NCBI GenBank assembly: GCA_024875585.1
Contig: GCA_024875585.1_4107.1
Source: a phage
DNA length: 64,000 nt
Reading direction: 5' to 3' (one strand)
Shown: positions 3,439 to 26,965 of the stretch, in pieces
How the letters are laid out: every line of letters starts with the position of its first letter
How positions within the stretch are numbered: position 1 is the stretch's first letter
The notes under the pieces: model-generated
Database searches by the model: none
What the model was told of the DNA's origin: nothing
Seen by the model: the letters and a program-made list of their open reading frames with translations, nothing else
Program-made: the position numbers and the translations under genes

Positions 3439-3466
3439 TTGACAATAGATTATAGTACTGTATAAT
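3439..3466 (+). promoter_or_regulatory. sigma70-type promoter (TTGACA-N16-TATAAT)
   Basis: TTGACA 3439-3444, TATAAT 3461-3466. Confidence 0.6.
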
Positions 3467-3485
3467 AGTTTACATCAAGGGCGAC

Positions 3486-3528
3486 GGGAAGTTTTAAAAA
3501 CTTCCCTATAGGGAGAATAGTTCTCCCC
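3486..3528 (+). promoter_or_regulatory. tandem 5' leader hairpins (GGGAAGTTT-TAAAA-AACTTCCC and GGGAGAA-TAG-TTCTCCC)
   Basis: two perfect inverted repeats in leader; same pair at 5580-5623 and 9763-9804. Confidence 0.6.
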
Positions 3529-3548
3529 ACTAACAGAGAGAAAACAAA

Positions 3549-3761
3549 ATGGCTAATATCTGCACTGTACTGAAAAATGCAAAACAAGTTTTATTTTCTG
3601 ATCACGATCATTTAAACAAGGATATTACTGGCGTTCGGAATATCAAAGATGTAAAACGTGTTATGGGTATCTATTGCAATATGAAACGTGTCGGCACGTT
3701 CGGTAATAAATTTCTATACCAGGCGGGGGATTACAATTTTACACTGACTATCATTAACTAA
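3549..3761 (+). CDS. hypothetical protein (70 aa)
   Basis: ORF+SD after structured leader. Confidence 0.7.
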   Translation: MANICTVLKNAKQVLFSDHDHLNKDITGVRNIKDVKRVMGIYCNMKRVGTFGNKFLYQAGDYNFTLTIIN

Positions 3762-3780
3762 AAATATTATCACAGTACTA

Positions 3781-3809
3781 TTGACATAGATTGATAGTAC
3801 TGGCATAAT
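3781..3809 (+). promoter_or_regulatory. sigma70-type promoter, class III (third copy)
   Basis: TTGACA 3781-3786, CATAAT 3804-3809. Confidence 0.6.
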
Positions 3810-3840
3810 AGATTTTATTAAAACAACTGAGGAAATTAAA

Positions 3841-4020
3841 ATGGCTATCATCGCAAAAACTGAAATCATCGGCCTGGATTCTATCATCATGACGTTTGAA
3901 GATCAAAAAGGTATGTATGTAGTTTCCTATGGTGATTATGTTCGGGAGTATGAAACGGTAGACGAAGCCTTTGAAAGTTACATTCGCCAGGTGAATAAAG
4001 CATACGACGATTACCGCTAA
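3841..4020 (+). CDS. hypothetical protein (59 aa); paralog of 886..1098
   Basis: ATG after SD GAGGAAATTAAA; below track cutoff. Confidence 0.6.
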   Translation: MAIIAKTEIIGLDSIIMTFEDQKGMYVVSYGDYVREYETVDEAFESYIRQVNKAYDDYR

Positions 4021-4047
4021 AATATATTACCAGTACTATCAAAGCTA

Positions 4048-4075
4048 TTGACAACGTTTGATAGTACTGTATAAT
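4048..4075 (+). promoter_or_regulatory. sigma70-type promoter (TTGACA-N16-TATAAT)
   Basis: TTGACA 4048-4053, TATAAT 4070-4075. Confidence 0.55.
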
Positions 4076-4121
4076 AAGTTTTATCAACTGTAGTTAACTT
4101 AACAAAAGAGAGAGAAACAAA

Positions 4122-4265
4122 ATGATCGCACTGGATTCATTCATCGATGCAGTTCTGGCAAAAACTGGCGAGGATCTGACCGCAGAACAATACGCAATGA
4201 TCGAGCAATGCCAGCAAGACGGTAAATCGGTGAAAGATACTGTTAAGATTATCCGCAAGATGTAA
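4122..4265 (+). CDS. hypothetical small acidic protein (47 aa)
   Basis: ATG after SD AAGAGAGAGA; below cutoff; hairpin follows. Confidence 0.55.
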   Translation: MIALDSFIDAVLAKTGEDLTAEQYAMIEQCQQDGKSVKDTVKIIRKM

Positions 4266-4371
4266 GATTATAAGCCCATTAGTTAACGCTGGTGGGCTTT
4301 AATCATTTACCCTATACAATGCCAGTACTAAACCGTTTATCTCGTTAGAATGCATTACAGGACGTTTGACA

Positions 4372-4569
4372 ATGATTAGCATGAAATCAGTACAAAAACA
4401 AATAGAAACATTATCAAAAATTAAACGTAAACAGTACTCATTAGAATATAATATCAATGGTAACTATCATCTAATGAAAGAGAATAATTTTATCGTCATT
4501 GATGAATCATTGCAAATTATTAGTATAGTACTGAAAGCATTAATTAATGATAGAAAAAGGTTAAAATAA
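4372..4569 (+). CDS. hypothetical protein (65 aa)
   Basis: track ORF starts at TTG 4366; first ATG used; start uncertain. Confidence 0.4.
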   Translation: MISMKSVQKQIETLSKIKRKQYSLEYNINGNYHLMKENNFIVIDESLQIISIVLKALINDRKRLK

Positions 4570-4826
4570 TGGCAGTAGGATTCGCGAAAGATGGAGCCGA
4601 GCAAGATGAGATTAACGCAGTTATTCAAGCCGCCGTTAACCACGCTAGAAAGCAAATTAACGCACAAATAGAATCACTGATACATTGCCTCGACTGCGGC
4701 GATAAAATCCCTGAGAATCGCCGACAGGCTGTTAAGGGATGTAAGTACTGCATAACCTGCCAGGAAGATCATGATAGTACTTTTAAAAGAGATCCGCGTA
4801 ATTGTTGGCATAGATCTATGAGATAA
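4569..4826 (+). CDS. DksA/TraR-family C4 zinc-finger protein
   Basis: CLDCGDKIPENRRQAV-x5-CITCQ, the CxxC-x17-CxxC spacing of TraR/DksA proteins. Confidence 0.65.
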   Translation: MAVGFAKDGAEQDEINAVIQAAVNHARKQINAQIESLIHCLDCGDKIPENRRQAVKGCKYCITCQEDHDSTFKRDPRNCWHRSMR

Positions 4827-4833
4827 AAAGTAA

Positions 4834-4861
4834 TTGACAGTACTGAAAGATAGTGTATAAT
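4834..4861 (+). promoter_or_regulatory. sigma70-type promoter
   Basis: TTGACA 4834-4839, TATAAT 4856-4861. Confidence 0.55.
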
Positions 4862-4890
4862 GTTTTATATCTTAACTGAGGATAGAAATC

Positions 4891-5247
4891 ATGGGAATAC
4901 AACATATCACGCGGACCACTGACAATGGCGAGATCACTGGTTATCAAGTACAGGGCAAAGTAGCACAATTGCAGTACTGGTTTGTTAAACGTGGAATCAT
5001 TGCACCGGATCTTGATTATGACCGTGTAGCGTTTATTGATTCTCTTTATGTTGATCCTGATAGTCGGGGCAATGGTGAAGGTAACGAATTAATGAATGCC
5101 TTTATTGATGCTGCCGATGATTCAGATTGTATCATTTTAGAATGCGATACGGGAGAAGATAACGCCTTCAATCTTAAAGAATGGTACGAAGGTTTCGGAT
5201 TCGAAGTACTGATCGATAGTGAATATCCTATCATGATTTTATCATAG
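4891..5247 (+). CDS. GNAT-family N-acetyltransferase (putative)
   Basis: FIDSLYVDPDSRGNGEGNELMNAFID resembles GNAT motif A (acetyl-CoA binding loop). Confidence 0.5.
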   Translation: MGIQHITRTTDNGEITGYQVQGKVAQLQYWFVKRGIIAPDLDYDRVAFIDSLYVDPDSRGNGEGNELMNAFIDAADDSDCIILECDTGEDNAFNLKEWYEGFGFEVLIDSEYPIMILS

Positions 5248-5261
5248 TACTAAAAAAGTAA

Positions 5262-5289
5262 TTGACAGTACTATCAGATAGTGTATAAT
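5262..5289 (+). promoter_or_regulatory. sigma70-type promoter
   Basis: TTGACA / TATAAT; leader hairpin GGGGAAACATCTTCCCC 5302-5318. Confidence 0.55.
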
Positions 5290-5330
5290 GTTTTACATAG
5301 AGGGGAAACATCTTCCCCTACTAAGAGGAA

Positions 5331-5525
5331 ATGAAAATGGAAAAATTATCAAGTATTTTAGTACAAGATGATTTTGGTAATCCTGGAAGTGCTATCATTG
5401 TTCGGGGTAATAAAGCAACGTTTGTTATTGCTGGTGGACCTGTACAGCGTAGCATTAAAAACAATGCTGTTACTATTAATAATGTACGCTATCGCTTAGA
5501 TAAAGAATTGATTCATAAACTTTAA
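5331..5525 (+). CDS. hypothetical protein (64 aa)
   Basis: ORF+SD TAAGAGG. Confidence 0.65.
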   Translation: MKMEKLSSILVQDDFGNPGSAIIVRGNKATFVIAGGPVQRSIKNNAVTINNVRYRLDKELIHKL

Positions 5526-5532
5526 AAAGTAC

Positions 5533-5560
5533 TTGCAATTAGTTTTTAGTACTGTATAAT
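5533..5560 (+). promoter_or_regulatory. sigma70-type promoter, class I
   Basis: TTGCAA / TATAAT; two leader hairpins 5580-5623. Confidence 0.6.
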
Positions 5561-5640
5561 AGTTTACATGAAAGGCAACGGGAAGTTTAAAAACTTCCCT
5601 AAAGGGGGAAATGATTCTCCCCACTAAGAGGAAAGAAAAA

Positions 5641-5853
5641 ATGCAAGGTCAACTAATCGTTCGTAAATGGTCTGATACTAATGAAAAACCGTGGGATGTA
5701 CAATACATCGGACCGGATGGGGTATCACGTTATCAGCCAGGCGTAACGCATAGTACTGAGCAATATGCCGCCGCTCATCGTGAACGCCTGTTAGAATCTA
5801 TGCAACAGGGTTTAGGTGAAAAATTCATTCAAGATCATTGGCTGAAAGATTAA
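5641..5853 (+). CDS. hypothetical protein (70 aa)
   Basis: start moved from 5611 (inside hairpin) to ATG after SD AAGAGGAAAG. Confidence 0.65.
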   Translation: MQGQLIVRKWSDTNEKPWDVQYIGPDGVSRYQPGVTHSTEQYAAAHRERLLESMQQGLGEKFIQDHWLKD

Positions 5854-5860
5854 AAAGTAC

Positions 5861-5888
5861 TTGTGTAGTATAGAAAATAAAGTATAAT
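5861..5888 (+). promoter_or_regulatory. sigma70-type promoter, class I
   Basis: TTGTGT / TATAAT; leader hairpin 5902-5918. Confidence 0.55.
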
Positions 5889-5939
5889 GTTTAATACAGG
5901 AAGGGGAATAGTTCCCCTCCTAACAAAAAGGAAAGTAAC

Positions 5940-6113
5940 ATGATTCATGTAGAATTGTCAGTACTGAGAGATTTGTTTTATCGGATGGGTACTACTGGCG
6001 AATATCCGAAGGGTGATACTGCAAAACTTTTTGTATCTCTCGACTTATGGCAACGCGAACAATTAGTAATGTCGTGGCGTAAAGGTAAAGCAGATCGCGA
6101 GGTGAAAGCATGA
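5940..6113 (+). CDS. hypothetical protein (57 aa)
   Basis: ATG after SD AAAAGGAAAG; below cutoff. Confidence 0.5.
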   Translation: MIHVELSVLRDLFYRMGTTGEYPKGDTAKLFVSLDLWQREQLVMSWRKGKADREVKA

Positions 6114-6259
6114 AAGAATTTTTATTCGAAGTAGTTTTTATTGGTGTAAGTAGTCACCAATTGATTCGCTCAAGTGGTTATAATGTTTGCCAGGCATGGA
6201 ATAACATTAAACAAATGTACCCGAACGCTATCACATATCGCAACCCAAAACAAGTTTAA
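6110..6259 (+). CDS. hypothetical protein (49 aa)
   Basis: ATGA overlap with previous ORF; below cutoff. Confidence 0.4.
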   Translation: MKEFLFEVVFIGVSSHQLIRSSGYNVCQAWNNIKQMYPNAITYRNPKQV

Positions 6260-6269
6260 AAATAATTAA

Positions 6270-6362
6270 AAAAAGGATTGACTTCGGTCAGTCCTTTTTG
6301 CTATTATATATTCATTGAGAGATAGCTCACTGACCCATAGGGTGCGGAAGTGTATCTATTAT
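6270..6362 (+). repeat. repeated intergenic element copy 2
   Basis: hairpin GGATTGAC-TTCG-GTCAGTCC carries a compensatory pair change relative to copy 1. Confidence 0.65.
6274..6299 (+). terminator. rho-independent terminator
   Basis: stem + TTTTTG. Confidence 0.6.
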
Positions 6363-6412
6363 ATGCTGGTGGGTGTATTATCTAGTACTGAAAACTATTT
6401 GATAAAAAGTAC

Positions 6413-6440
6413 TTGCATTGTACTTAGAATCAAGTATAAT
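6413..6440 (+). promoter_or_regulatory. sigma70-type promoter, class I, with no ORF downstream
   Basis: TTGCAT / TATAAT; followed by ~80 nt without ORF before the next promoter. Confidence 0.5.
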
Positions 6441-6446
6441 GTTTTA

Positions 6447-6525
6447 CATCAGGACGGGGAACGAAATAAGTAAATCCCTGTTAAGTAGCCCAGGAGTAAG
6501 GCATACGAAAAACTCCCCTGATAAA
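6447..6525 (+). ncRNA. candidate small RNA or leader-only transcript
   Basis: promoter-driven ORF-free segment with GGGGA...TCCCC pairing potential. Confidence 0.25.
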
Positions 6526-6530
6526 ATAGT

Positions 6531-6559
6531 TTGACAATAATTTTAAGTACTGATAAAAT
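6531..6559 (+). promoter_or_regulatory. sigma70-type promoter, class II (second copy)
   Basis: TTGACA 6531-6536, A/T-rich -10. Confidence 0.5.
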
Positions 6560-6591
6560 AATCACATCAACTACTGATAAGGAAACATAAA

Positions 6592-6867
6592 ATGCGGGTT
6601 CTTCTGACAGCTAACGAAATCGAGCAAGTACTTACTACTAACCTGGAACAATGGAAACGTGAAGCAGATATCCAGGCGGTTCAATTGTTAAATGAGAAGT
6701 TAACGCCGGATGATTTAAGTAAGATTGTAGATCCTCAATTCTACGAAGATATTCACGACACCGCGTTAAGCGTCGAGGATGTACTAGATAAGCACTACAT
6801 TGATACTAATTTACAGGGTTACGGTCGTAAAAATTTTATTACTATTCACGACATTTACAATAATTAA
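6592..6867 (+). CDS. hypothetical protein (91 aa)
   Basis: ORF+SD TAAGGAAACA. Confidence 0.7.
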   Translation: MRVLLTANEIEQVLTTNLEQWKREADIQAVQLLNEKLTPDDLSKIVDPQFYEDIHDTALSVEDVLDKHYIDTNLQGYGRKNFITIHDIYNN

Positions 6868-6870
6868 GTA

Positions 6871-6898
6871 TTGACAAAGTATCTTAGTACTGTATAAT
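6871..6898 (+). promoter_or_regulatory. sigma70-type promoter, class IV (GTATTGACAAAGTATCTTAGTACTGTATAAT)
   Basis: TTGACA / TATAAT; leader hairpin 6913-6931. Confidence 0.6.
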
Positions 6899-6952
6899 AG
6901 TTTACATCAAGTGAGGGGAATGGTTCCCCTCCTAACAAAGAGAGAAATAAAA

Positions 6953-7135
6953 ATGGCTAAGTGCACTATCTGTAAGAAAGAAATCGTATTAGTTCCAAGT
7001 GCCCGTGAGCGTGCCGCTCGGTTCGGTGGCAAAGCGTCAGACTATACAAAAATGTTTACTACTCATGCAAATTGCCAGGTAGCAAAACGTTCACAAGAAA
7101 GCGTAGAATTAATGCGTAAACTTTCCAAAAAATAA
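6953..7135 (+). CDS. small Cys-containing protein (60 aa), possible zinc-binding
   Basis: start moved from 6911; MAKCTICKK...HANCQ. Confidence 0.6.
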   Translation: MAKCTICKKEIVLVPSARERAARFGGKASDYTKMFTTHANCQVAKRSQESVELMRKLSKK

Positions 7136-7138
7136 GTA

Positions 7139-7166
7139 TTGACAAAGTATCTTAGTACTGTATAAT
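7139..7166 (+). promoter_or_regulatory. sigma70-type promoter, class IV (second copy)
   Basis: near-identical to 6868-6900; leader hairpin 7181-7200. Confidence 0.6.
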
Positions 7167-7221
7167 AGTTTACATCAAGTGAGGGGAAACGGTTCCCCTC
7201 CTAACAAAGAGAGAAATAAAA

Positions 7222-7545
7222 ATGACTATGATCCTTGCCCAGAAAGTAGAACTGAAAATTGTAACTTCCTTTGACATTAAAGTTAATCGCTGGACTGATC
7301 GGAACGGTAATACTTACCACTCTTGCTACGTGTCTGCATTGATTGGTGATCGTTGGGAAGACTTGGGACACGAAACCTTTACATACGGTTATGGTACGCA
7401 AGGCGAATACACTGGTTTGGAGATCATTAAAGAAACCGTTATAGGTTTCAACCCGAAAGAAAAAGTTATTCACCGCATCGAAAAAGAGATTAACAAAGAA
7501 ATAACAGTTCGCTACTACGATGTAAAACGTAAGAAAGACATGTAA
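7222..7545 (+). CDS. hypothetical protein (107 aa); paralog of 1181..1525
   Basis: ORF+SD; FTYGYG and C-terminal VKRKKD shared. Confidence 0.7.
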   Translation: MTMILAQKVELKIVTSFDIKVNRWTDRNGNTYHSCYVSALIGDRWEDLGHETFTYGYGTQGEYTGLEIIKETVIGFNPKEKVIHRIEKEINKEITVRYYDVKRKKDM

Positions 7546-7567
7546 TAGAATCCATTTAAAGTACTAT

Positions 7568-7596
7568 TTGACATTACACAGATAGTACTTTATAAT
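7568..7596 (+). promoter_or_regulatory. sigma70-type promoter
   Basis: TTGACA-N17-TATAAT. Confidence 0.55.
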
Positions 7597-7640
7597 AGAC
7601 TCTAACTTGTAGTACTAACTTAACTAATAGGATGTATACC

Positions 7641-8036
7641 ATGATTACTAAATTCTACGCTACCCGTGAAGCTGCCCGTATTGTTGCACGCGAGGAAGGA
7701 GCGGCATTTAAAGACATGGGCAAAGATGCACCGAAAGGCCAACGCTGGAGCGTACAGTTCAAAGAAATCTCTGATATTGTGAATTCACCTGAACCAGTAC
7801 TGACAGCAGCAGAACAGAAGAAAGCTGATGAACTGGCGGCAATTCTTAACGCTCAAGATGAATTCGTCGAGGGTGCTGATATCCAGGTTGTAGTAAATTC
7901 GAATGCATGGACTCACGCGGATCATCTGGCTAACCTGAAGCGTCCAAGCGTACTGATTCGCAACCAGAAAGAGATCCGTCATGACCGTAAGGGTAATCGT
8001 GTAACAGTATACAGTAAACGCCGCCAGGTTATCTAA
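7641..8036 (+). CDS. hypothetical protein (131 aa), GC-richer than neighbours
   Basis: ORF; start ATG 7641 or 7632; host-like codon usage by eye. Confidence 0.6.
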   Translation: MITKFYATREAARIVAREEGAAFKDMGKDAPKGQRWSVQFKEISDIVNSPEPVLTAAEQKKADELAAILNAQDEFVEGADIQVVVNSNAWTHADHLANLKRPSVLIRNQKEIRHDRKGNRVTVYSKRRQVI

Positions 8037-8058
8037 TAACTTGCAGTTCTAACAACAC

Positions 8059-8083
8059 GGCGGGATCTGTTCCCGCCTTTTTT
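8059..8083 (+). terminator. rho-independent terminator
   Basis: GGCGGGA-TCTGT-TCCCGCC then TTTTTT. Confidence 0.75.
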
Positions 8084-8098
8084 ACAGGATAAACTAAA

Positions 8099-8353
8099 AT
8101 GATTAAGGTAAAACTATCTAAAGATAATATCTTGCGGGTACACTATAAAGCCCCTCAGAGAATCATCACAAAGGCCGTACAGCTTGCGAATGAGTTTATT
8201 AATGGTAATCTATTACCTAGGAAGTTAAGCAACGGAAAACTGCGTGTAATCGATGTAGACACTAACAACAGAATAGTAATAGAGAATACCGGAAAGATAA
8301 ACCTATATGAACACCAACAATATAATAAGAAAATAAAACTAATTAGTCGTTGA
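8099..8353 (+). CDS. hypothetical protein (84 aa)
   Basis: ORF+SD AGGATAAACTAAA. Confidence 0.65.
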   Translation: MIKVKLSKDNILRVHYKAPQRIITKAVQLANEFINGNLLPRKLSNGKLRVIDVDTNNRIVIENTGKINLYEHQQYNKKIKLISR

Positions 8354-8378
8354 CAGTACTCAAATGTTTTAGTACTAT
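8350..8378 (+). promoter_or_regulatory. sigma70-type promoter (TTGACAGTACTCAAAT...TACTAT)
   Basis: TTGACA-N17-TACTAT. Confidence 0.5.
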
Positions 8379-8407
8379 ATATCTATACCAACACGGAGAG
8401 AAACAAA

Positions 8408-8626
8408 ATGAAATTATCTAAAATCGAAAAGAAAACTATTGACGTAGCTATCCAACATGGTTACACATTTCGTAATGATTTACATTTTACCAATTTTCAA
8501 CAAGGGTATCGTACTATTAAAAAACTAATTGACAAAGGTTTATTAGTTAAAGTAGACAACGGCAACGGCGTTGAATATCAACCAACACAGGACGCATTTA
8601 ATTTTAAGAAATATAATATTATCTAA
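8408..8626 (+). CDS. hypothetical protein (72 aa)
   Basis: ORF+SD CGGAGAGAAACA. Confidence 0.65.
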   Translation: MKLSKIEKKTIDVAIQHGYTFRNDLHFTNFQQGYRTIKKLIDKGLLVKVDNGNGVEYQPTQDAFNFKKYNII

Positions 8627-8655
8627 TTGACAGTACTCAAATATTTTAGTACTAT
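8627..8655 (+). promoter_or_regulatory. sigma70-type promoter (copy of 8350 module)
   Basis: TTGACAGTACTCAAAT...TACTAT. Confidence 0.5.
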
Positions 8656-8682
8656 ATCTATACCAACACAGGAAAAAACAAA

Positions 8683-9267
8683 ATGCGTAATTATACTAAA
8701 TTCATCCGTACACTGTCAGAAATGGAAACCAACAAAGAGATCTTGACAGCTTGTCGGTTAGCTGGTCTGGAGATCATCGGTGCGGGGTCTTCCCGTATTG
8801 TATTCGCTTTAAATGATCGGTTAGTGATTAAGGTCGCGAATTGTGATGCAGGTGTAGAACAAAATGAAACAGAATGTAAAGTATGGAATTTTTTAGATTA
8901 TGACCGCCCTCAGTTGAAACAGTTCTTTGCTAAAGTACATATGCATTTAAGCGATCCTGATAATATGTTTATTGTTATGGATCGGTTGAGTACTGCAAGT
9001 AAAGGCAGTGTAAAGCACGTTAATGCGTGCAACGAATTAAAGTACAATATTAAACGTAATGCCATTGAACGCCAACACCGCTTTGCTGATGCACTACAAC
9101 ACGTAGATGATACATTATCAACACTAACGATTAGAGATATCAGAAAACAGAATATCGGCCAGGATCGAAATGGACTGATTAAAGTACTTGATTATGGTTT
9201 AACCCGCAATATCTGGAATCAGTACTATAAAAAGCGTGATGTAGCAGCAAGTAAGGTAACACGATAA
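8683..9267 (+). CDS. putative protein kinase-like protein (194 aa)
   Basis: IGAGSSRIVF...VIKVA (Gly-loop + Lys), RDIRKQNIG (catalytic-loop-like), LDYGL (DFG-like); from memory, unverified. Confidence 0.4.
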   Translation: MRNYTKFIRTLSEMETNKEILTACRLAGLEIIGAGSSRIVFALNDRLVIKVANCDAGVEQNETECKVWNFLDYDRPQLKQFFAKVHMHLSDPDNMFIVMDRLSTASKGSVKHVNACNELKYNIKRNAIERQHRFADALQHVDDTLSTLTIRDIRKQNIGQDRNGLIKVLDYGLTRNIWNQYYKKRDVAASKVTR

Positions 9268-9274
9268 AAAAGAT

Positions 9275-9372
9275 TAAAAAAGGGATTGACTCCGGTCAGT
9301 CCCTTTGCTATTATATATTCATTGAGAGATAACTCACTGACCCATAGGGTGCGGGAGTGTATCTATTATATA
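9275..9372 (+). repeat. repeated intergenic element copy 3
   Basis: hairpin GGGATTGAC-TCCG-GTCAGTCCC + conserved tail. Confidence 0.65.
9282..9307 (+). terminator. rho-independent terminator
   Basis: stem + TTTG. Confidence 0.55.
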
Positions 9373-9407
9373 AGTATTGAGTACTGAAAACTATTTTTAA
9401 AAAGTAC

Positions 9408-9435
9408 TTGCAATGTACTTAGAATCAAGTATAAT
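9408..9435 (+). promoter_or_regulatory. sigma70-type promoter, class I
   Basis: TTGCAA / TATAAT; leader hairpin 9450-9468. Confidence 0.6.
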
Positions 9436-9489
9436 GTTTTATATCGAGAGGGGGAAATGGTTCTCCCCAATACAATAAGGAATAAAATC

Positions 9490-9711
9490 ATGACTACAAT
9501 GACTTGCATTTACGCTTCCAATCTTCTGAATGATGCGGCCTTTAATGTTGATTCAGAATATCAATGTTATCGGGATGAAAATAAAAAAGTTTTTGTAGTT
9601 GATAATAATGGTTTCCATATTGAATTGCAATCCGGCTTCACTGGCGTTGATGGTAAATCAGTATGGGGCGTACAGGATGATAAAGGTACATATCATTTTA
9701 AACGTAATTAA
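9490..9711 (+). CDS. hypothetical protein (73 aa)
   Basis: start moved from 9457 to ATG after SD TAAGGAATAAAATC. Confidence 0.65.
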   Translation: MTTMTCIYASNLLNDAAFNVDSEYQCYRDENKKVFVVDNNGFHIELQSGFTGVDGKSVWGVQDDKGTYHFKRN

Positions 9712-9714
9712 GTA

Positions 9715-9742
9715 TTGACAAAGTATCTTAGTACTGTATAAT
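9715..9742 (+). promoter_or_regulatory. sigma70-type promoter, class IV
   Basis: TTGACA / TATAAT; two leader hairpins 9763-9804. Confidence 0.6.
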
Positions 9743-9826
9743 AGTTTACATCAAGGGCAACGGGAAGTTTTTAAAACTTCCCTATAGGGAGAATAGATCT
9801 CCCCGATACTAAAAGGAAACAAAAAT

Positions 9827-10099
9827 ATGTCTAGCTACTCCGCTACTATGATCATTAAAGATATGAACGGTAATCCTACTGCTGCTGGTGGATCATTTGG
9901 AAACATTAACTTAGATGGTCGGTTAACCATGCAATCAGCCATCAATGCAGCGAAAGAAGTTTTTAAGAATGAATGCACTGTAAGTAAGCTGGATTATATG
10001 GGATTCGCTATCGAGAAAACTAATCGTTTTGTGAACTACAAAAATCCACTGATGATTGATACCAACCTGAAAGCTAACGAAGTGGAATACTTATTATGA
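9827..10099 (+). CDS. hypothetical protein (90 aa)
   Basis: ORF+SD AAAAGGAAACA. Confidence 0.7.
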   Translation: MSSYSATMIIKDMNGNPTAAGGSFGNINLDGRLTMQSAINAAKEVFKNECTVSKLDYMGFAIEKTNRFVNYKNPLMIDTNLKANEVEYLL

Positions 10100-10287
10100 C
10101 AGTTGAAGAAGTTAAAAAAGTACTGGCAGTTCTACGCTATCATAATCATTGCAAGGTGAAGAATGATCCTGATTATCTTGATTCATCCCTTGAGGAAGAC
10201 ACATTAAACGCAATAAGCTATATGCAAACATTATTAAAACGTATGACCGAAAAGAATAGACCGGACTATATCGGAAATAAAATTTAA
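10096..10287 (+). CDS. hypothetical protein (63 aa)
   Basis: ATGA overlap with upstream gene. Confidence 0.55.
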   Translation: MTVEEVKKVLAVLRYHNHCKVKNDPDYLDSSLEEDTLNAISYMQTLLKRMTEKNRPDYIGNKI

Positions 10288-10294
10288 AAAGTAC

Positions 10295-10322
10295 TTGCAT
10301 TGTAGTTAGATTAACGTATAAT
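10295..10322 (+). promoter_or_regulatory. sigma70-type promoter, class I
   Basis: TTGCAT / TATAAT; leader hairpin 10337-10353. Confidence 0.6.
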
Positions 10323-10373
10323 GTTTTATATCGAGAGGGGAAATGGTTTCCCCTCAAGTCCAGGAGATACACA

Positions 10374-10637
10374 ATGAACACTATCGAAATCACTATCAAT
10401 GCTCACGTATACGACAACGTAGTACTGCAAACTACTATGACCGCTAATGATACCAGAACTTTGCGGAATACTGTTATAAGTGCCGTATGTGCTGCAATTG
10501 GTGATGTATCCCTGGAAAATGCAGAACATATCAACAACGGTTTCACTATGTGCAAACGTGATAACGCAAAACATATCATCGTAGAAGGTTACGGCGGTGT
10601 AGAATATAATCTTTATATGAAAAAAGTACTTGCATAG
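10374..10637 (+). CDS. hypothetical protein (87 aa)
   Basis: ORF+SD CAGGAGATACACA. Confidence 0.7.
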   Translation: MNTIEITINAHVYDNVVLQTTMTANDTRTLRNTVISAVCAAIGDVSLENAEHINNGFTMCKRDNAKHIIVEGYGGVEYNLYMKKVLA

Positions 10638-10657
10638 TAACTAAAACAAAGTATAAT
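10629..10657 (+). promoter_or_regulatory. sigma70-type promoter, class I (overlaps 3' end of previous CDS)
   Basis: TTGCAT / TATAAT; leader hairpin GGGGGAG-ATATC-CTCCCCC. Confidence 0.55.
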
Positions 10658-10704
10658 GTTTTGCATAGGGGGAGATATCCTCCCCCACTAAAAGGAGTAC
10701 TAAA

Positions 10705-10929
10705 ATGGCTAACTTTGATGAACTGATGCGGGAAGTAGCTACCCTGGCAGAAGAGAAGAAATCATTTGATTCTATCTATAACACCTCTTACCGTGATTCA
10801 GTACTGGCATGTAACCAGGATCAAAAAGATGAACTAATCGCCACCTATCATGAAGCGTGGAAGTATTACCGCCAATGGGAGAAAGAAGAAAGTGAGTCTA
10901 CCATTGACGGCCTCAATAATCTAATCTAA
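10705..10929 (+). CDS. hypothetical acidic protein (74 aa)
   Basis: ORF+SD AAAAGGAGTAC. Confidence 0.7.
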   Translation: MANFDELMREVATLAEEKKSFDSIYNTSYRDSVLACNQDQKDELIATYHEAWKYYRQWEKEESESTIDGLNNLI

Positions 10930-10947
10930 AGTTTTATTTCAGTACTA

Positions 10948-10976
10948 TTGACATAGATTGATAGTACTGATATGAT
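10948..10976 (+). promoter_or_regulatory. sigma70-type promoter, class III variant
   Basis: TTGACATAGATTGATAGTACTGA-TATGAT. Confidence 0.55.
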
Positions 10977-11004
10977 AACTTTACTAACTACAAGGGGAAA
11001 CATC

Positions 11005-11262
11005 ATGGAACAATTCACACAATATCGGGTAAATCCTCAAGCTATGGCATACGTAGAAGACCATAAAACGTTACCAGTACAAACACCAATTAAAGGCCAT
11101 ATCTATCGTGCAATGTCATGGAATCCGGCCCAGGATGGCTATAAAACCGTAGCCGTGGGTATGTACTGCGGTAATGGTGAATGGTTTGATCCTAACAATC
11201 CGATTGCACTTGATAGTACTGAAAAAATGAAATGGGCCGACTACATCGAAGATATTTCATAA
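11005..11262 (+). CDS. hypothetical protein (85 aa)
   Basis: start moved from 10972 to ATG after SD CAAGGGGAAACATC. Confidence 0.6.
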   Translation: MEQFTQYRVNPQAMAYVEDHKTLPVQTPIKGHIYRAMSWNPAQDGYKTVAVGMYCGNGEWFDPNNPIALDSTEKMKWADYIEDIS

Positions 11263-11268
11263 AAATTA

Positions 11269-11297
11269 TTTGACAGTACTAACCAGTAATGTATAAT
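11269..11297 (+). promoter_or_regulatory. sigma70-type promoter
   Basis: TTGACA-N17-TATAAT; leader hairpin with covarying GCGGGGG/CTCCCGC. Confidence 0.6.
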
Positions 11298-11352
11298 GTT
11301 TTACATAGAGCGGGGGAATAGTTCTCCCGCCAATAGTTTGGAGTAAAACATT

Positions 11353-11553
11353 ATGTCTATCGCTATCGCCCTGGTCGAAGTACTGAAAGAAGCTAAAGCC
11401 AACCTTATCGATGTACAGATTAAGGAATTGCAAAATGGCTTAATCGGCTGTACTTGTACCGCTGGTGGCCCGTCAGACTATCGGGAATTCGAATCACTTG
11501 AATCGATGGTCCGTTATCTTACAATCATCGTAGAAGATTGGAGAATCATCTAA
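11353..11553 (+). CDS. hypothetical protein (66 aa)
   Basis: ORF+SD TTTGGAGTAAAACATT. Confidence 0.65.
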   Translation: MSIAIALVEVLKEAKANLIDVQIKELQNGLIGCTCTAGGPSDYREFESLESMVRYLTIIVEDWRII

Positions 11554-11564
11554 CAAAAAAAAAG

Positions 11565-11660
11565 AATAAAAAGGGATTGACTCCGGTCAGTCCCTTTGCT
11601 ATTATATACGCATAGACAAAAACTAGCCCACAGGGTGCATAGGTGTATCTAAAATATATA
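11565..11660 (+). repeat. repeated intergenic element copy 4 (diverged tail)
   Basis: same hairpin as copy 3; downstream half partly diverged. Confidence 0.55.
11573..11598 (+). terminator. rho-independent terminator
   Basis: GGGATTGAC-TCCG-GTCAGTCCC + TTTG. Confidence 0.55.
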
Positions 11661-11716
11661 GTTAATAACGGTGAGTAACCATCTGCTGGTGGAGTGAAAA
11701 CTATTAATAAAAAGTA

Positions 11717-11746
11717 TTGACAAAGTATATCAGTACTGCAATAATG
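11717..11746 (+). promoter_or_regulatory. sigma70-type promoter
   Basis: TTGACA, AGTACTG, A/T-rich -10. Confidence 0.45.
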
Positions 11747-11799
11747 TATCTCGTAGGGCGGCAATGGTGCGACGGCCCACAAAGTTAGGAGATACACAA

Positions 11800-12132
11800 A
11801 TGAGTACTTCAATCGCTATCGTTAAAGCTTTCATCCGTACCAACGTTTCATCTGTATTCATTGACGGATTGGATCGGGAAGTAGAATACTCAATCATTAT
11901 CGCACAAACGGCAAACGGTGCTCGGTACATCCTTAATGATAGTGAAGCAAATCACTACTACTTCACTAAAGCCACTGGCTTTAAACGCATCGATGCTGAT
12001 GTAGTATACGCTAAGATGAATAAGCTGGTAGATAAGATTAACACTAAAGGTACTATCGATTTACAGTACTGGACCGAAACCGATCCAGAATATGGATCTC
12101 ACCGCTACCTGAATCCAGGTATTAAAATGTAA
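11800..12132 (+). CDS. hypothetical protein (110 aa)
   Basis: start moved from 11764 to ATG after SD TTAGGAGATACACAA. Confidence 0.65.
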   Translation: MSTSIAIVKAFIRTNVSSVFIDGLDREVEYSIIIAQTANGARYILNDSEANHYYFTKATGFKRIDADVVYAKMNKLVDKINTKGTIDLQYWTETDPEYGSHRYLNPGIKM

Positions 12133-12138
12133 AAAGTA

Positions 12139-12167
12139 CTTGTGTAGCACTTAGATTTAAGTATAAT
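12139..12167 (+). promoter_or_regulatory. sigma70-type promoter, class I
   Basis: TTGTGT / TATAAT; leader hairpin 12182-12200. Confidence 0.6.
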
Positions 12168-12221
12168 GTTTTTCATAGAGAGGGGGAAATGGTTCTCCCT
12201 CATAAATTAAGGAGTTTTATC

Positions 12222-12623
12222 ATGACCTTCTCAATCACTTCCTTCGCTGACGTTTTAGTACTGGCTCGGACTTTTGGCAAAGCTGGCCTTGAGCACGCTG
12301 TAAGTAATGGTTATATGCACCCGGAATATTGCCGCATTATCGGTAGCTGCAAACGTTGGGCCGTGTCCCGTAATATTGAGATTGAAAACTTCAATGATGG
12401 TAACAACGAATATACAGTTGATGCAGTATTCGAATCCGTTGATCTCGGCGGTATCTATAACACTAACCTGAATGATGTGCGTATCGTTCGCACGGGGTTC
12501 GGTGCTTATGATGTATCTATCCGTGAAGCGATGGACAAGGGATACATTAGCAAGGATCAGTTAGCTTACATTATGCAGCAGACTAAAGAGCGTAATGAAG
12601 CACGCACTATCTTAGGTCTGTAA
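12222..12623 (+). CDS. hypothetical protein (133 aa)
   Basis: start moved from 12189 to ATG after SD TAAGGAGTTTTATC. Confidence 0.65.
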   Translation: MTFSITSFADVLVLARTFGKAGLEHAVSNGYMHPEYCRIIGSCKRWAVSRNIEIENFNDGNNEYTVDAVFESVDLGGIYNTNLNDVRIVRTGFGAYDVSIREAMDKGYISKDQLAYIMQQTKERNEARTILGL

Positions 12624-25818: not shown

Positions 25819-26367
25819 ATGAGTTTATTAGATACATTAGAAAAAGACCGAAGTGCAATTAAACGATTAAAAAAGCAAATTCAAAAGATTGTATACAACG
25901 TTGATAAGTTTGAGGTTCCTGGGAGAGTAGGTGATATTTCCCATACTGAGATCAAATCCCTTAAGTCAGATTTGTTGGTTAAAAATAAAAATGAGTTGAT
26001 TTTAGTTTTGAGTTCAGATATGATGGGGGTAAGATATGGTTTTAATTCAGTATCAGTGCATCCTAAGAGTGAAGGGATATATCTATCACAGGGTTTCAAT
26101 AGCAACGAGCAGAAGTGTTTTTACGATGCTGTACATGAACCTTTGAAGTTTACGAGAAGTGAAGCTCAAGCGTTATTAGAGCTATCAGACGAGAGTTTGT
26201 TTCAGTACAGTACAATGTACGACAATGACAAGCTTCGTTGTATGTACGCAGTGAAGCATTATGCACATGAGTTCTCTGGATTTGAATACCTTTTAGTTAG
26301 AACCAATACAATGTATCTTGATATGTTAGAAGAATACATCGATAAAGTTGTTAATGAGTATCACTAA
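25819..26367 (+). CDS. Family B paralog
   Basis: ESLFQYSTMYD. Confidence 0.6.
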   Translation: MSLLDTLEKDRSAIKRLKKQIQKIVYNVDKFEVPGRVGDISHTEIKSLKSDLLVKNKNELILVLSSDMMGVRYGFNSVSVHPKSEGIYLSQGFNSNEQKCFYDAVHEPLKFTRSEAQALLELSDESLFQYSTMYDNDKLRCMYAVKHYAHEFSGFEYLLVRTNTMYLDMLEEYIDKVVNEYH

Positions 26368-26528
26368 TGAAAGAGTTATTTGAAGATCAGTTCAATACCT
26401 ATGTGGATAATATTCTTTATTCCAATCGTGCCAGTCAACGAGGAAATCGTGCTTACAATATTGATTACCTATTAGTGGTACTGAGTTCACAGTACACACA
26501 CGCTGTACAGAGGATGTATTATGAATAG
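26367..26528 (+). CDS. hypothetical small protein (53 aa)
   Basis: TAATG-coupled ORF below cutoff. Confidence 0.35.
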   Translation: MKELFEDQFNTYVDNILYSNRASQRGNRAYNIDYLLVVLSSQYTHAVQRMYYE

Positions 26529-26724
26529 TTATCACGATATTGCAAAGGAGAAGTTGGAGTGTAGTTTAGATTACGGTTTAAATAATTTTCTTACATGCAC
26601 AATGTACAGGGATGAAGATTATGAACAATCCGTAATTTCGTTGCATAGATATTTCGAAATAATTTACGCAAGATATCTTAGAAGGTTAAACGGGATAGGG
26701 GATTGGAATTATGATTACGTTTGA
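26521..26724 (+). CDS. hypothetical protein (67 aa)
   Basis: ORF. Confidence 0.45.
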   Translation: MNSYHDIAKEKLECSLDYGLNNFLTCTMYRDEDYEQSVISLHRYFEIIYARYLRRLNGIGDWNYDYV

Positions 26725-26965
26725 AGAACCAGAAACAATGAGTCCATATACGATGAAAGGTTTTGAATTCATGATGGATTCGATTTTGAAGAATTCGTGT
26801 TTAGTACACAATCCTGGATGTGCTACAGTGAGGGAATATCAGGACAATGCATTGCATCGTGTAATGAATATGTACAGGAATACGAGCCGTAAGCTTTGTG
26901 CGATTAAAAGGATTAAAGAAATCAAGGCTTCTAAGATGAATAAAATCAATCCGTGTGATTTTTGA
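26711..26965 (+). CDS. hypothetical protein (84 aa)
   Basis: ORF. Confidence 0.45.
   Translation: MITFEEPETMSPYTMKGFEFMMDSILKNSCLVHNPGCATVREYQDNALHRVMNMYRNTSRKLCAIKRIKEIKASKMNKINPCDF

Follow-up and report, generated by a model that had tools for sequence, protein, structure and literature searches.

A minimal protein-kinase-like protein of Asteriusvirus jumbo coliphages, probably expressed early in infection

Can a phage protein of only 194 residues that carries the motifs of a protein kinase be a kinase, and if so, of which kind? Its gene lies at positions 8683..9267, stop codon included, on the + strand of a 64,000-nucleotide stretch of phage DNA (GenBank assembly GCA_024875585.1, contig GCA_024875585.1_4107.1), the whole of which is here called the window; all features of the window given below are on the same strand. 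The open reading frame (ORF) starts with ATG, and a Shine-Dalgarno-like AGGA can be read from the sequence at 8670..8673, 9 nucleotides (nt) 5' of the start. The window is DNA of an Asteriusvirus (121Q/PBECO4/G17-like) jumbo coliphage, and the region shows 92-95% DNA identity to the Escherichia Asteriusvirus phages 121Q, PBECO4, G17, slurp01 and Sharanji, with genomes of about 350 kb. The initial annotation, made from the sequence alone, had pointed to a glycine-rich loop followed by VIKVA, RDIRKQNIG and LDYGL, had proposed an early-expressed kinase with a parallel in T7-like phages, and had cautioned that the motifs might be coincidental. All four motifs are there, in the kinase order that it gave.

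Orthologues that are 96-98.5% identical are found in about 30 Asteriusvirus phages, and homologues that are 35-40% identical in RaK2-like jumbo phages of Klebsiella, Salmonella and Erwinia. The ratio of nonsynonymous to synonymous substitution rates (dN/dS) is 0.05-0.13 against four orthologues, and this is therefore a protein-coding gene under purifying selection; the opposite strand beneath it holds only an ORF of 51 amino acids (aa), and an Rfam scan of 6000-12500 gave no family at gathering score. The protein matches PHROG 4301 ('unknown function') over its full length, residues 2-188 being aligned to positions 12-185 of the 225-position profile (E=2e-42, 146 bits). When a profile built from the close homologues was used in an exhaustive HMMER search, it returned 1793 cluster representatives, at the 50% identity level, with E<=0.001, and 136 with E<=1e-10. 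The conservation figures that follow come from an alignment of 98 homologues, 20-90% identical to the 194-aa protein, which were chosen at 150-265 aa and make up most of 159 proteins.

The phosphate-binding glycine-rich loop (G-loop), G33-A-G-S-S-R-I-V-F41, is encoded at 8779..8805, within IGAGSSRIVF (residues 32-41); G35 and S36 are each kept in 91 of the 98 homologues, and R38, which occupies the position of the third glycine of canonical kinases, in all of them. K50, the beta3 'VAIK' lysine, is found in VIKVA (residues 48-52, codon 8830..8832), aligns with the AVK lysine of PKC-beta and is likewise present in every homologue. A family-specific motif, G57-x-x-Q60-N61-x-x-E64 (8851..8874), has G57, Q60 and E64 in all 98 and N61 in 95, and E64 is the presumed partner of K50, with which it would form a salt bridge in the model described below. 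The catalytic loop D152-I-R-K-Q-N157 (9136..9153, the codon of D152 at 9136-9138 and that of N157 at 9151-9153) is part of RDIRKQNIG (residues 151-159) and aligns with the HRDxxxxN of MKK4 and PKC. D152 is conserved in 95 of 98; position 157, five residues on (D+5), is H, N, S or Q across the wider family and Asn only in this subfamily (N in 9/9 sequences of the close-relative alignment), and the glycine at D+7 is near-invariant. The Mg-binding equivalent of the 'DFG' motif is D170-Y-G172 (9190..9198, the D170 codon being 9190-9192), in LDYGL (residues 169-173), with D170 and G172 in 98/98 and Y or F between them in 95/98. Invariant in the alignment are thus R38, K50, G57, Q60, E64, D170 and G172, while G35, S36, A52, N61, D152 and G159 (97/98) are conserved to at least 90%, which gives the family signature GxGSSR ... 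KxA ... GxxQNxxE ... D-x4-[NHS]-x-G ... D[YF]G.

Chance resemblance in an AT-rich ORF was the worry of the initial annotation, and the E-values of the single sequence are indeed weak: Pfam Pkinase (PF00069) is matched at E=1.3e-3 with 18.6 bits, and the best phmmer match among PDB sequences has E 7e-3. Just 4 of the 98 family members match Pkinase at E<0.01, none of the close homologues has a precomputed Pfam domain, and a search of NCBIfam gave no meaningful match. The 60 phmmer matches listed are protein kinases only, and the alignments hold the catalytic loop and the DFG motif in register, for example 'rdirkqnigqdrnglikvldygl' with MKK4. Searches with profiles also match kinases in register, and by sequence the closest matches overall are to Hanks-type protein kinases such as BTK, MKK4, AKT and PKC. 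AlphaFold2 run on the 98-sequence alignment gave a model with a predicted local distance difference test (pLDDT) of 94.7 and a predicted template modelling score (pTM) of 0.90, which superseded a run on 9 close homologues (pLDDT 64.6) with a poor or unresolved C-terminal half. Foldseek of the confident model against the PDB found, with a probability of 0.98-1.00, MEK1, PknB, p38 and PRPK, aminoglycoside phosphotransferases, and SAICAR synthases, whose fold is related. Across the structure searches the matches are almost exclusively protein-kinase-like. Both the bilobal ATP-binding fold and the catalytic residue set (Lys, Glu, Asp and the Asp of DxG) are present. The absence of any kinase match in profile or structure searches had been named in advance as what would speak against a kinase; the opposite was found, and the kinase-fold reading therefore stands. 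We regard it as almost certain that the protein has a protein-kinase-like fold. Coincidence is refuted for practical purposes, with a negligible probability left to it, by the catalytic residues that do not vary in 98 homologues, the number of cluster representatives, the purifying selection on the gene, and the confident model with its kinase-fold matches.

The fold is unusually short at one end. The model begins with an N-terminal extension of two helices (4-12 and 17-26), followed by an N-lobe with a three-stranded sheet, in which the G-loop hairpin is made by strands 30-34 and 38-42 and beta3 carries K50, and with an alphaC helix (55-73) that contains the family-specific motif and E64. After beta5 (96-100) and the hinge, the C-lobe has helices 108-120 and 129-145, equivalent to alphaD and alphaE, then the catalytic loop from D152 to N157, a beta7/beta8 hairpin (158-160 and 166-168), D170-Y-G and a single short helix (175-182) before the C-terminus. 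Past the aspartate of DYG the chain runs on for only 24 residues, which is also the median tail across the 98 members. A canonical kinase such as PKA continues for roughly 110 or more residues past the Asp of DFG. Subdomains VIII-XI are thus missing, with the activation segment, the P+1/APE region and alphaF to alphaI, and the protein is not a complete Pkinase domain.

Is this simply a gene call cut short? Metagenomic relatives speak to the question, for among them are tandem fusions with 2-4 full modules of ~190 aa per chain (e.g. P0021, P0026, P0027, P0028 and P0031; loci including L005 and L016, and for P0027 contigs of up to 185 kb), in which the next module begins about 20-70 residues after the preceding DxG and the Lys, DxG and GSSR motifs are retained in most of the modules. 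Because of these complete modules in tandem and the 24-residue median tail, the short C-terminus is not a truncated gene call. One copy of P0027, on a 149-kb contig, was seen to lie within an array of small ORFs, beside a metallophosphatase gene.

When would the protein be made? A sigma-70-type promoter-like site, TTGACA-17-TACTAT (8627..8655; -35 at 8627-8632, -10 at 8650-8655; 10/12 consensus positions), begins directly where the 72-aa ORF upstream ends with its stop codon. The genes called around the kinase gene are all on the + strand and mostly tiny, with a median of 74-75 aa in 1-21 kb, and nine perfect 12/12 sigma-70 consensus promoters (TTGACA-16/17-TATAAT) are found between 3439 and 11297, all + and each preceding a small ORF, with many 10-11/12 matches alongside. 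In phage vB_Ec-M-J the orthologue is inside an annotated direct terminal repeat of ~21.5 kb, and the gene is present twice only in records of at least 366 kb, which include both repeats. For the related phage CBB, a region rich in RpoD promoters and short ORFs, which includes the terminal repeat, has been proposed to hold early genes (PMC5259590). From the gene's own promoter, the promoter-dense array of small ORFs, the terminal repeat of vB_Ec-M-J and the proposal for CBB, early expression by the host polymerase is a well-founded inference, and the 'early-expressed' of the initial annotation thus finds support in the context. It was also observed that 12/12 promoters are far denser at 3439-11297 than elsewhere in the first 20 kb.

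The gene is best explained, in our opinion, as coding for a minimal phosphotransferase that is active and produced early, probably a protein kinase of low specificity, and we hold this with slightly more belief than doubt. That the protein is a catalytically active phosphotransferase is likely, and is favoured because the full catalytic set is conserved; whether its substrate is a protein is an evenly balanced matter, and a role in host take-over or anti-defence is plausible but rather doubtful. In such a scheme the host RNA polymerase would transcribe the gene from its own sigma-70 promoter once the terminal-repeat end enters the cell. By comparison with canonical kinases, Lys50 and Glu64 would place the phosphates of ATP, Asp170, together with Asn157 in this subfamily, would bind Mg2+, and Asp152 would serve as the catalytic base, while Arg38 of the G-loop may contact the gamma-phosphate in place of the missing catalytic-loop lysine. 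A low-specificity protein kinase seems most likely because there is no P+1 or alphaF-alphaI platform and because the kinase of T7 (gp0.7, family T7K) sets a precedent. The least certain step is the last one, in which low-specificity Ser/Thr(/Tyr) phosphorylation of host proteins would serve take-over or anti-defence, in a manner analogous to T7 gp0.7 and separately evolved. The protein could possibly be a homo-oligomer, since related proteins fuse 2-4 modules per chain. A PADLOC scan found a weak, generic kinase similarity to PD-T4-6 (E=1.3e-4), which is not evidence of a defence role.

Several points weigh against an active enzyme made early. The Pkinase score of 18.6 bits does not reach the gathering threshold of 31.7 bits. 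The alphaF helix, the hydrophobic anchor of canonical kinases, is missing, and activity can not be assumed; Ser/Thr kinases typically have a D-x-K lysine in the catalytic loop, which is lacking here (the Lys stands at D+3 instead of D+2), and two thirds of the wider family have H, S or Q in place of the Mg-binding Asn. A construct of the Salmonella effector kinase SteC, 210-375, that ends just past DGD, its DFG equivalent, is inactive (PMC13395416). The early timing, finally, rests on matches to consensus promoters and on the annotation of a relative.

Some of these points would fit a pseudokinase or an incomplete kinase that binds nucleotide and is inactive alone, and acts as a scaffold or an inhibitor or needs a partner protein or a host factor to make up the active site. 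The missing alphaF and activation segment are in its favour, as is the activation by partners of other minimal kinases (PMC13395416, PMC9950578), where OspG needs E2~ubiquitin and SteC needs phosphorylation, and the tandem fusions hint at modules that cooperate or oligomerise. Pseudokinases usually lose at least one catalytic residue, however, whereas all or nearly all of the 98 members keep K50, E64, D152, D170 and G172; dN/dS is low, and T7 gp0.7, with a similarly short module, is highly active (PMC13645617). We find a protein that is inactive alone quite improbable for these reasons.

If the enzyme is active, the substrate could instead be a small molecule, a nucleotide, a lipid or a sugar, as for aminoglycoside phosphotransferases, Kdo kinase and choline kinase. 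The 'atypical' D-x4-[N/H/S] catalytic loop without the Ser/Thr-kinase lysine, and weak matches of two family members to ABC1 and of one to AceK_kinase, point in that direction. Aminoglycoside phosphotransferases, RIO1/RIO2 and Bud32/PRPK also have a catalytic loop without this lysine and no activation loop, but each has retained a helical C-terminal subdomain, which the 194-aa protein, with its 24 residues after the Asp of DxG, lacks. The pocket helices that this subdomain provides in the aminoglycoside/choline-kinase types are thus absent, the fold similarity covers 128-129 of 295-301 residues, and no sequence-level match to the Pfam or NCBIfam models of these atypical kinase-fold enzymes was found. 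The closest sequence matches are to the Hanks type, and T7 gp0.7, a proven protein kinase, is likewise without the D-x-K lysine. A non-protein substrate appears unlikely to us, though less so than inactivity.

Compared with Hanks-type kinases (PF00069/PF07714), the 194-aa protein has the G-loop, the beta3 Lys, the alphaC Glu, D-x4-N and D[FY]G in canonical order, but differs in the lack of subdomains VIII-XI, in the Arg that replaces the third G-loop glycine and in the Lys at D+3. Kinase domains of about 200 residues with a depleted C-lobe are also known from the minimal effector kinases OspG of Shigella and NleH of E. coli, SteC of Salmonella and HopBF1 of Pseudomonas, which a parasite uses inside its host (PMC13395416, PMC9950578). 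SteC is matched weakly at its N-lobe by the family profile (8jbi, E=0.0097) and differs in that it retains alphaF (PMC13395416), and the effector kinases as a group differ in being secreted into eukaryotic cells, some of them with a need for host activators. No specific sequence relationship to these kinases was found, SteC having been compared by profile and OspG, NleH and HopBF1 likened to the 194-aa protein from published descriptions, for OspG from reviews.

A close known parallel is T7 gp0.7, an early, hyper-promiscuous kinase that disarms defences (PMC13645617). Could the 194-aa protein be its jumbo-phage orthologue, a member of PHROG 2828, the T7K family? Both would be early phage kinases, transcribed by the host RNA polymerase, with a short module, that of T7K also stopping about 20 residues past its DFG equivalent. 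A profile-profile comparison of the two families gave 90.6% probability (E=1.3e-6) over 76 columns, of the N-lobe only, and in BFVD near-full-length structural matches were found to phage 'protein kinase' proteins (TMq 0.53-0.56, 183-186 columns), including A0A7L7SMK1, which is listed as a T7K homologue (PMC13645617). On the other side, the PHROG scan matched 4301 and not 2828, searches of the PHROG 4301 family against T7K with hmmsearch gave E>=0.09 in either direction, and T7K-family sequences reach <=8.9 bits with the family profile, compared with 22-23 bits for cellular kinases; an hhalign comparison to T7 gp0.7 alone gave 3.7% probability. The T7K hallmarks DP[VL] and D-x-H-x-x-N, of which D213-P214 and H197 are invariant in the T7K family alignment, are absent, and the 194-aa protein has DYG and D-I-R-K-Q-N, without His at D+2. 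It differs from T7K further in its G-loop (GxGSSR, T7K GNGHFS), in its DYG where T7K has DPV, and in its QNxxE motif, and from T7 gp0.7 in the absence of a C-terminal domain for shut-off or DNA binding.

The relatives themselves carry a separate true T7K homologue. In Sharanji this is WNN14432.1 (66182-66856 on the - strand, 26183-26857 of our locus L009), a protein of 224 aa with a BLASTP E=4e-8 to T7 gp0.7 and the motifs D-I-H-S-S-N and T-D-P-L, without a shut-off domain. Sharanji thus has both this gene and WNN14351.1, the orthologue of the 194-aa kinase, about 46 kb apart, and its T7K-like gene is on the flank that the window does not cover; a search of the window with the family profile found only the ORF studied here, no paralogue, and the T7K-like gene is not in the window. 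Membership in the T7K family is rejected on the profile and motif evidence and on the separate T7K homologue in relatives, and orthology has a very small probability. Of the parallel drawn by the initial annotation the kinase fold holds, and the T7-type family membership does not. On sequence grounds PHROG 4301 and T7K are rather to be seen as analogous minimal phage kinases of different families, and by analogy T7 gp0.7 is probably what the 194-aa protein works like.

That the protein is a kinase has already been put forward in public: the product names given in GenBank are 'protein kinase domain-containing protein' (ph0011) and 'serine/threonine-protein kinase PknA' (Turkey3), those of the RaK2-like homologues (SE_PL, Muenster, Munch, fENko-Kae01 and K64-1) 'putative protein kinase' or 'protein kinase', and UniProt names the PBECO4 protein as a kinase-domain protein. 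The Sharanji paper says of WNN14351.1 'another protein kinase ... function is unknown' (PMC11895373). In the searchable literature the minimal architecture, the family signature, the family size and the tandem-module proteins were not found described, and none of the papers found gives an assay of the protein. It is a speculation, and one we consider somewhat less probable than the take-over role by itself, that PHROG 4301 is a large unnamed lineage of 'half-C-lobe' kinases of ~200 residues and a second, T7K-independent, promiscuous early anti-defence kinase, the modules of which are oligomeric with the 2-4-module fusions as the covalent version. Were it true, Asteriusvirus phages would deploy two different minimal kinases. 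The early kinase of T7 phosphorylates most of the host proteome and disarms several defence systems (PMC13645617), and if the 194-aa kinase acts similarly, broad phosphorylation would be a more general counter-defence strategy of phages, and there would be two enzymes of this sort in jumbo coliphages that are candidates for therapy. Having neither an activation loop nor alphaF, the protein also provides a natural test of the minimum of the kinase fold that is needed for catalysis.

The ends of the transcription unit could be marked on both sides of the gene. Upstream, just after a 134-aa ORF (7632-8036), GGCGGGATCTGTTCCCGCC and the TTTTTT behind it make up a strong intrinsic terminator (8059..8077), which suggests a boundary upstream of the three genes that follow, a ParE-like ORF, the 72-aa ORF and the kinase gene. 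Downstream, a 12-bp stem-loop (9279..9306; -19.5 kcal/mol, z=-3.8) begins 12 nt past the kinase stop and probably marks the 3' boundary; it contains the -35 TTGACT (9286-9291) of the next promoter-like site, with the -10 TATTAT at 9309-9314. A stem-loop of 12-13 bp with the core TTGACTYCGGTCAG is found in four + copies, at 2863-2890, 6270-6299, 9279-9306 and 11570-11597, with 0.01 copies expected in the window by chance; its 5' arm is a -35 hexamer with TATTAT 17 nt later. The copies look like combined cassettes of a terminator-like hairpin and a promoter between early genes, similar to the 'promoter-early stem-loop' elements known from T4-type phages. The Rfam scan also gave a sub-threshold match, at chance level, at 6209-6307, outside the kinase gene.

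The ParE-like ORF (8099-8353, 84 aa), two genes upstream of the kinase gene, has the toxin domain PF24732 at E=6e-11, above threshold, and in the metagenomic contigs L017 and L018 a ParE_like ORF precedes the kinase homologue at a distance of about 3 kb. In the window just 56 nt, which include the promoter-like site, lie between the 72-aa ORF and the kinase gene. In Turkey3, Sharanji and vB_Ec-M-J the two are separated by an additional ORF of 80 aa, which from the comparison of window 8626-8683 with L001 5670-6000 and L002 1169-1500 is read as an insertion or deletion of one small early gene. At the DNA level the 5-kb region is matched best by MH494197.1 (CMSTMSU; 99% coverage, 92.3%), in which the kinase copy (116446-117023) is only 77% identical, in two pieces and unannotated; a frameshift, a pseudogene or an error in sequencing could explain this.

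A search for related loci with the shallow alignment gave 121Q itself and one partial match only. The distant homologues are found in arrays of small unidirectional ORFs without Pfam matches on contigs of 109 and 149 kb, and the three larger contigs examined resemble large-phage DNA; two further metagenomic members are on contigs whose short length leaves no gene context to compare. The small ORFs of 1-21 kb have 16-17% Ser+Thr+Tyr, compared with 19.7% for 21-64 kb, a direction that fits the Ser/Thr/Tyr depletion reported for early proteins of T7K-encoding phages but is confounded by protein size and composition, and it is not used as evidence here. After the small-ORF region, ~21300-46800 (+) holds about 55 ORFs of similar size, with a median of 164 aa, which may be a paralogous gene array, and a comparable run of ORFs of 150-200 aa follows the kinase homologue in L017.

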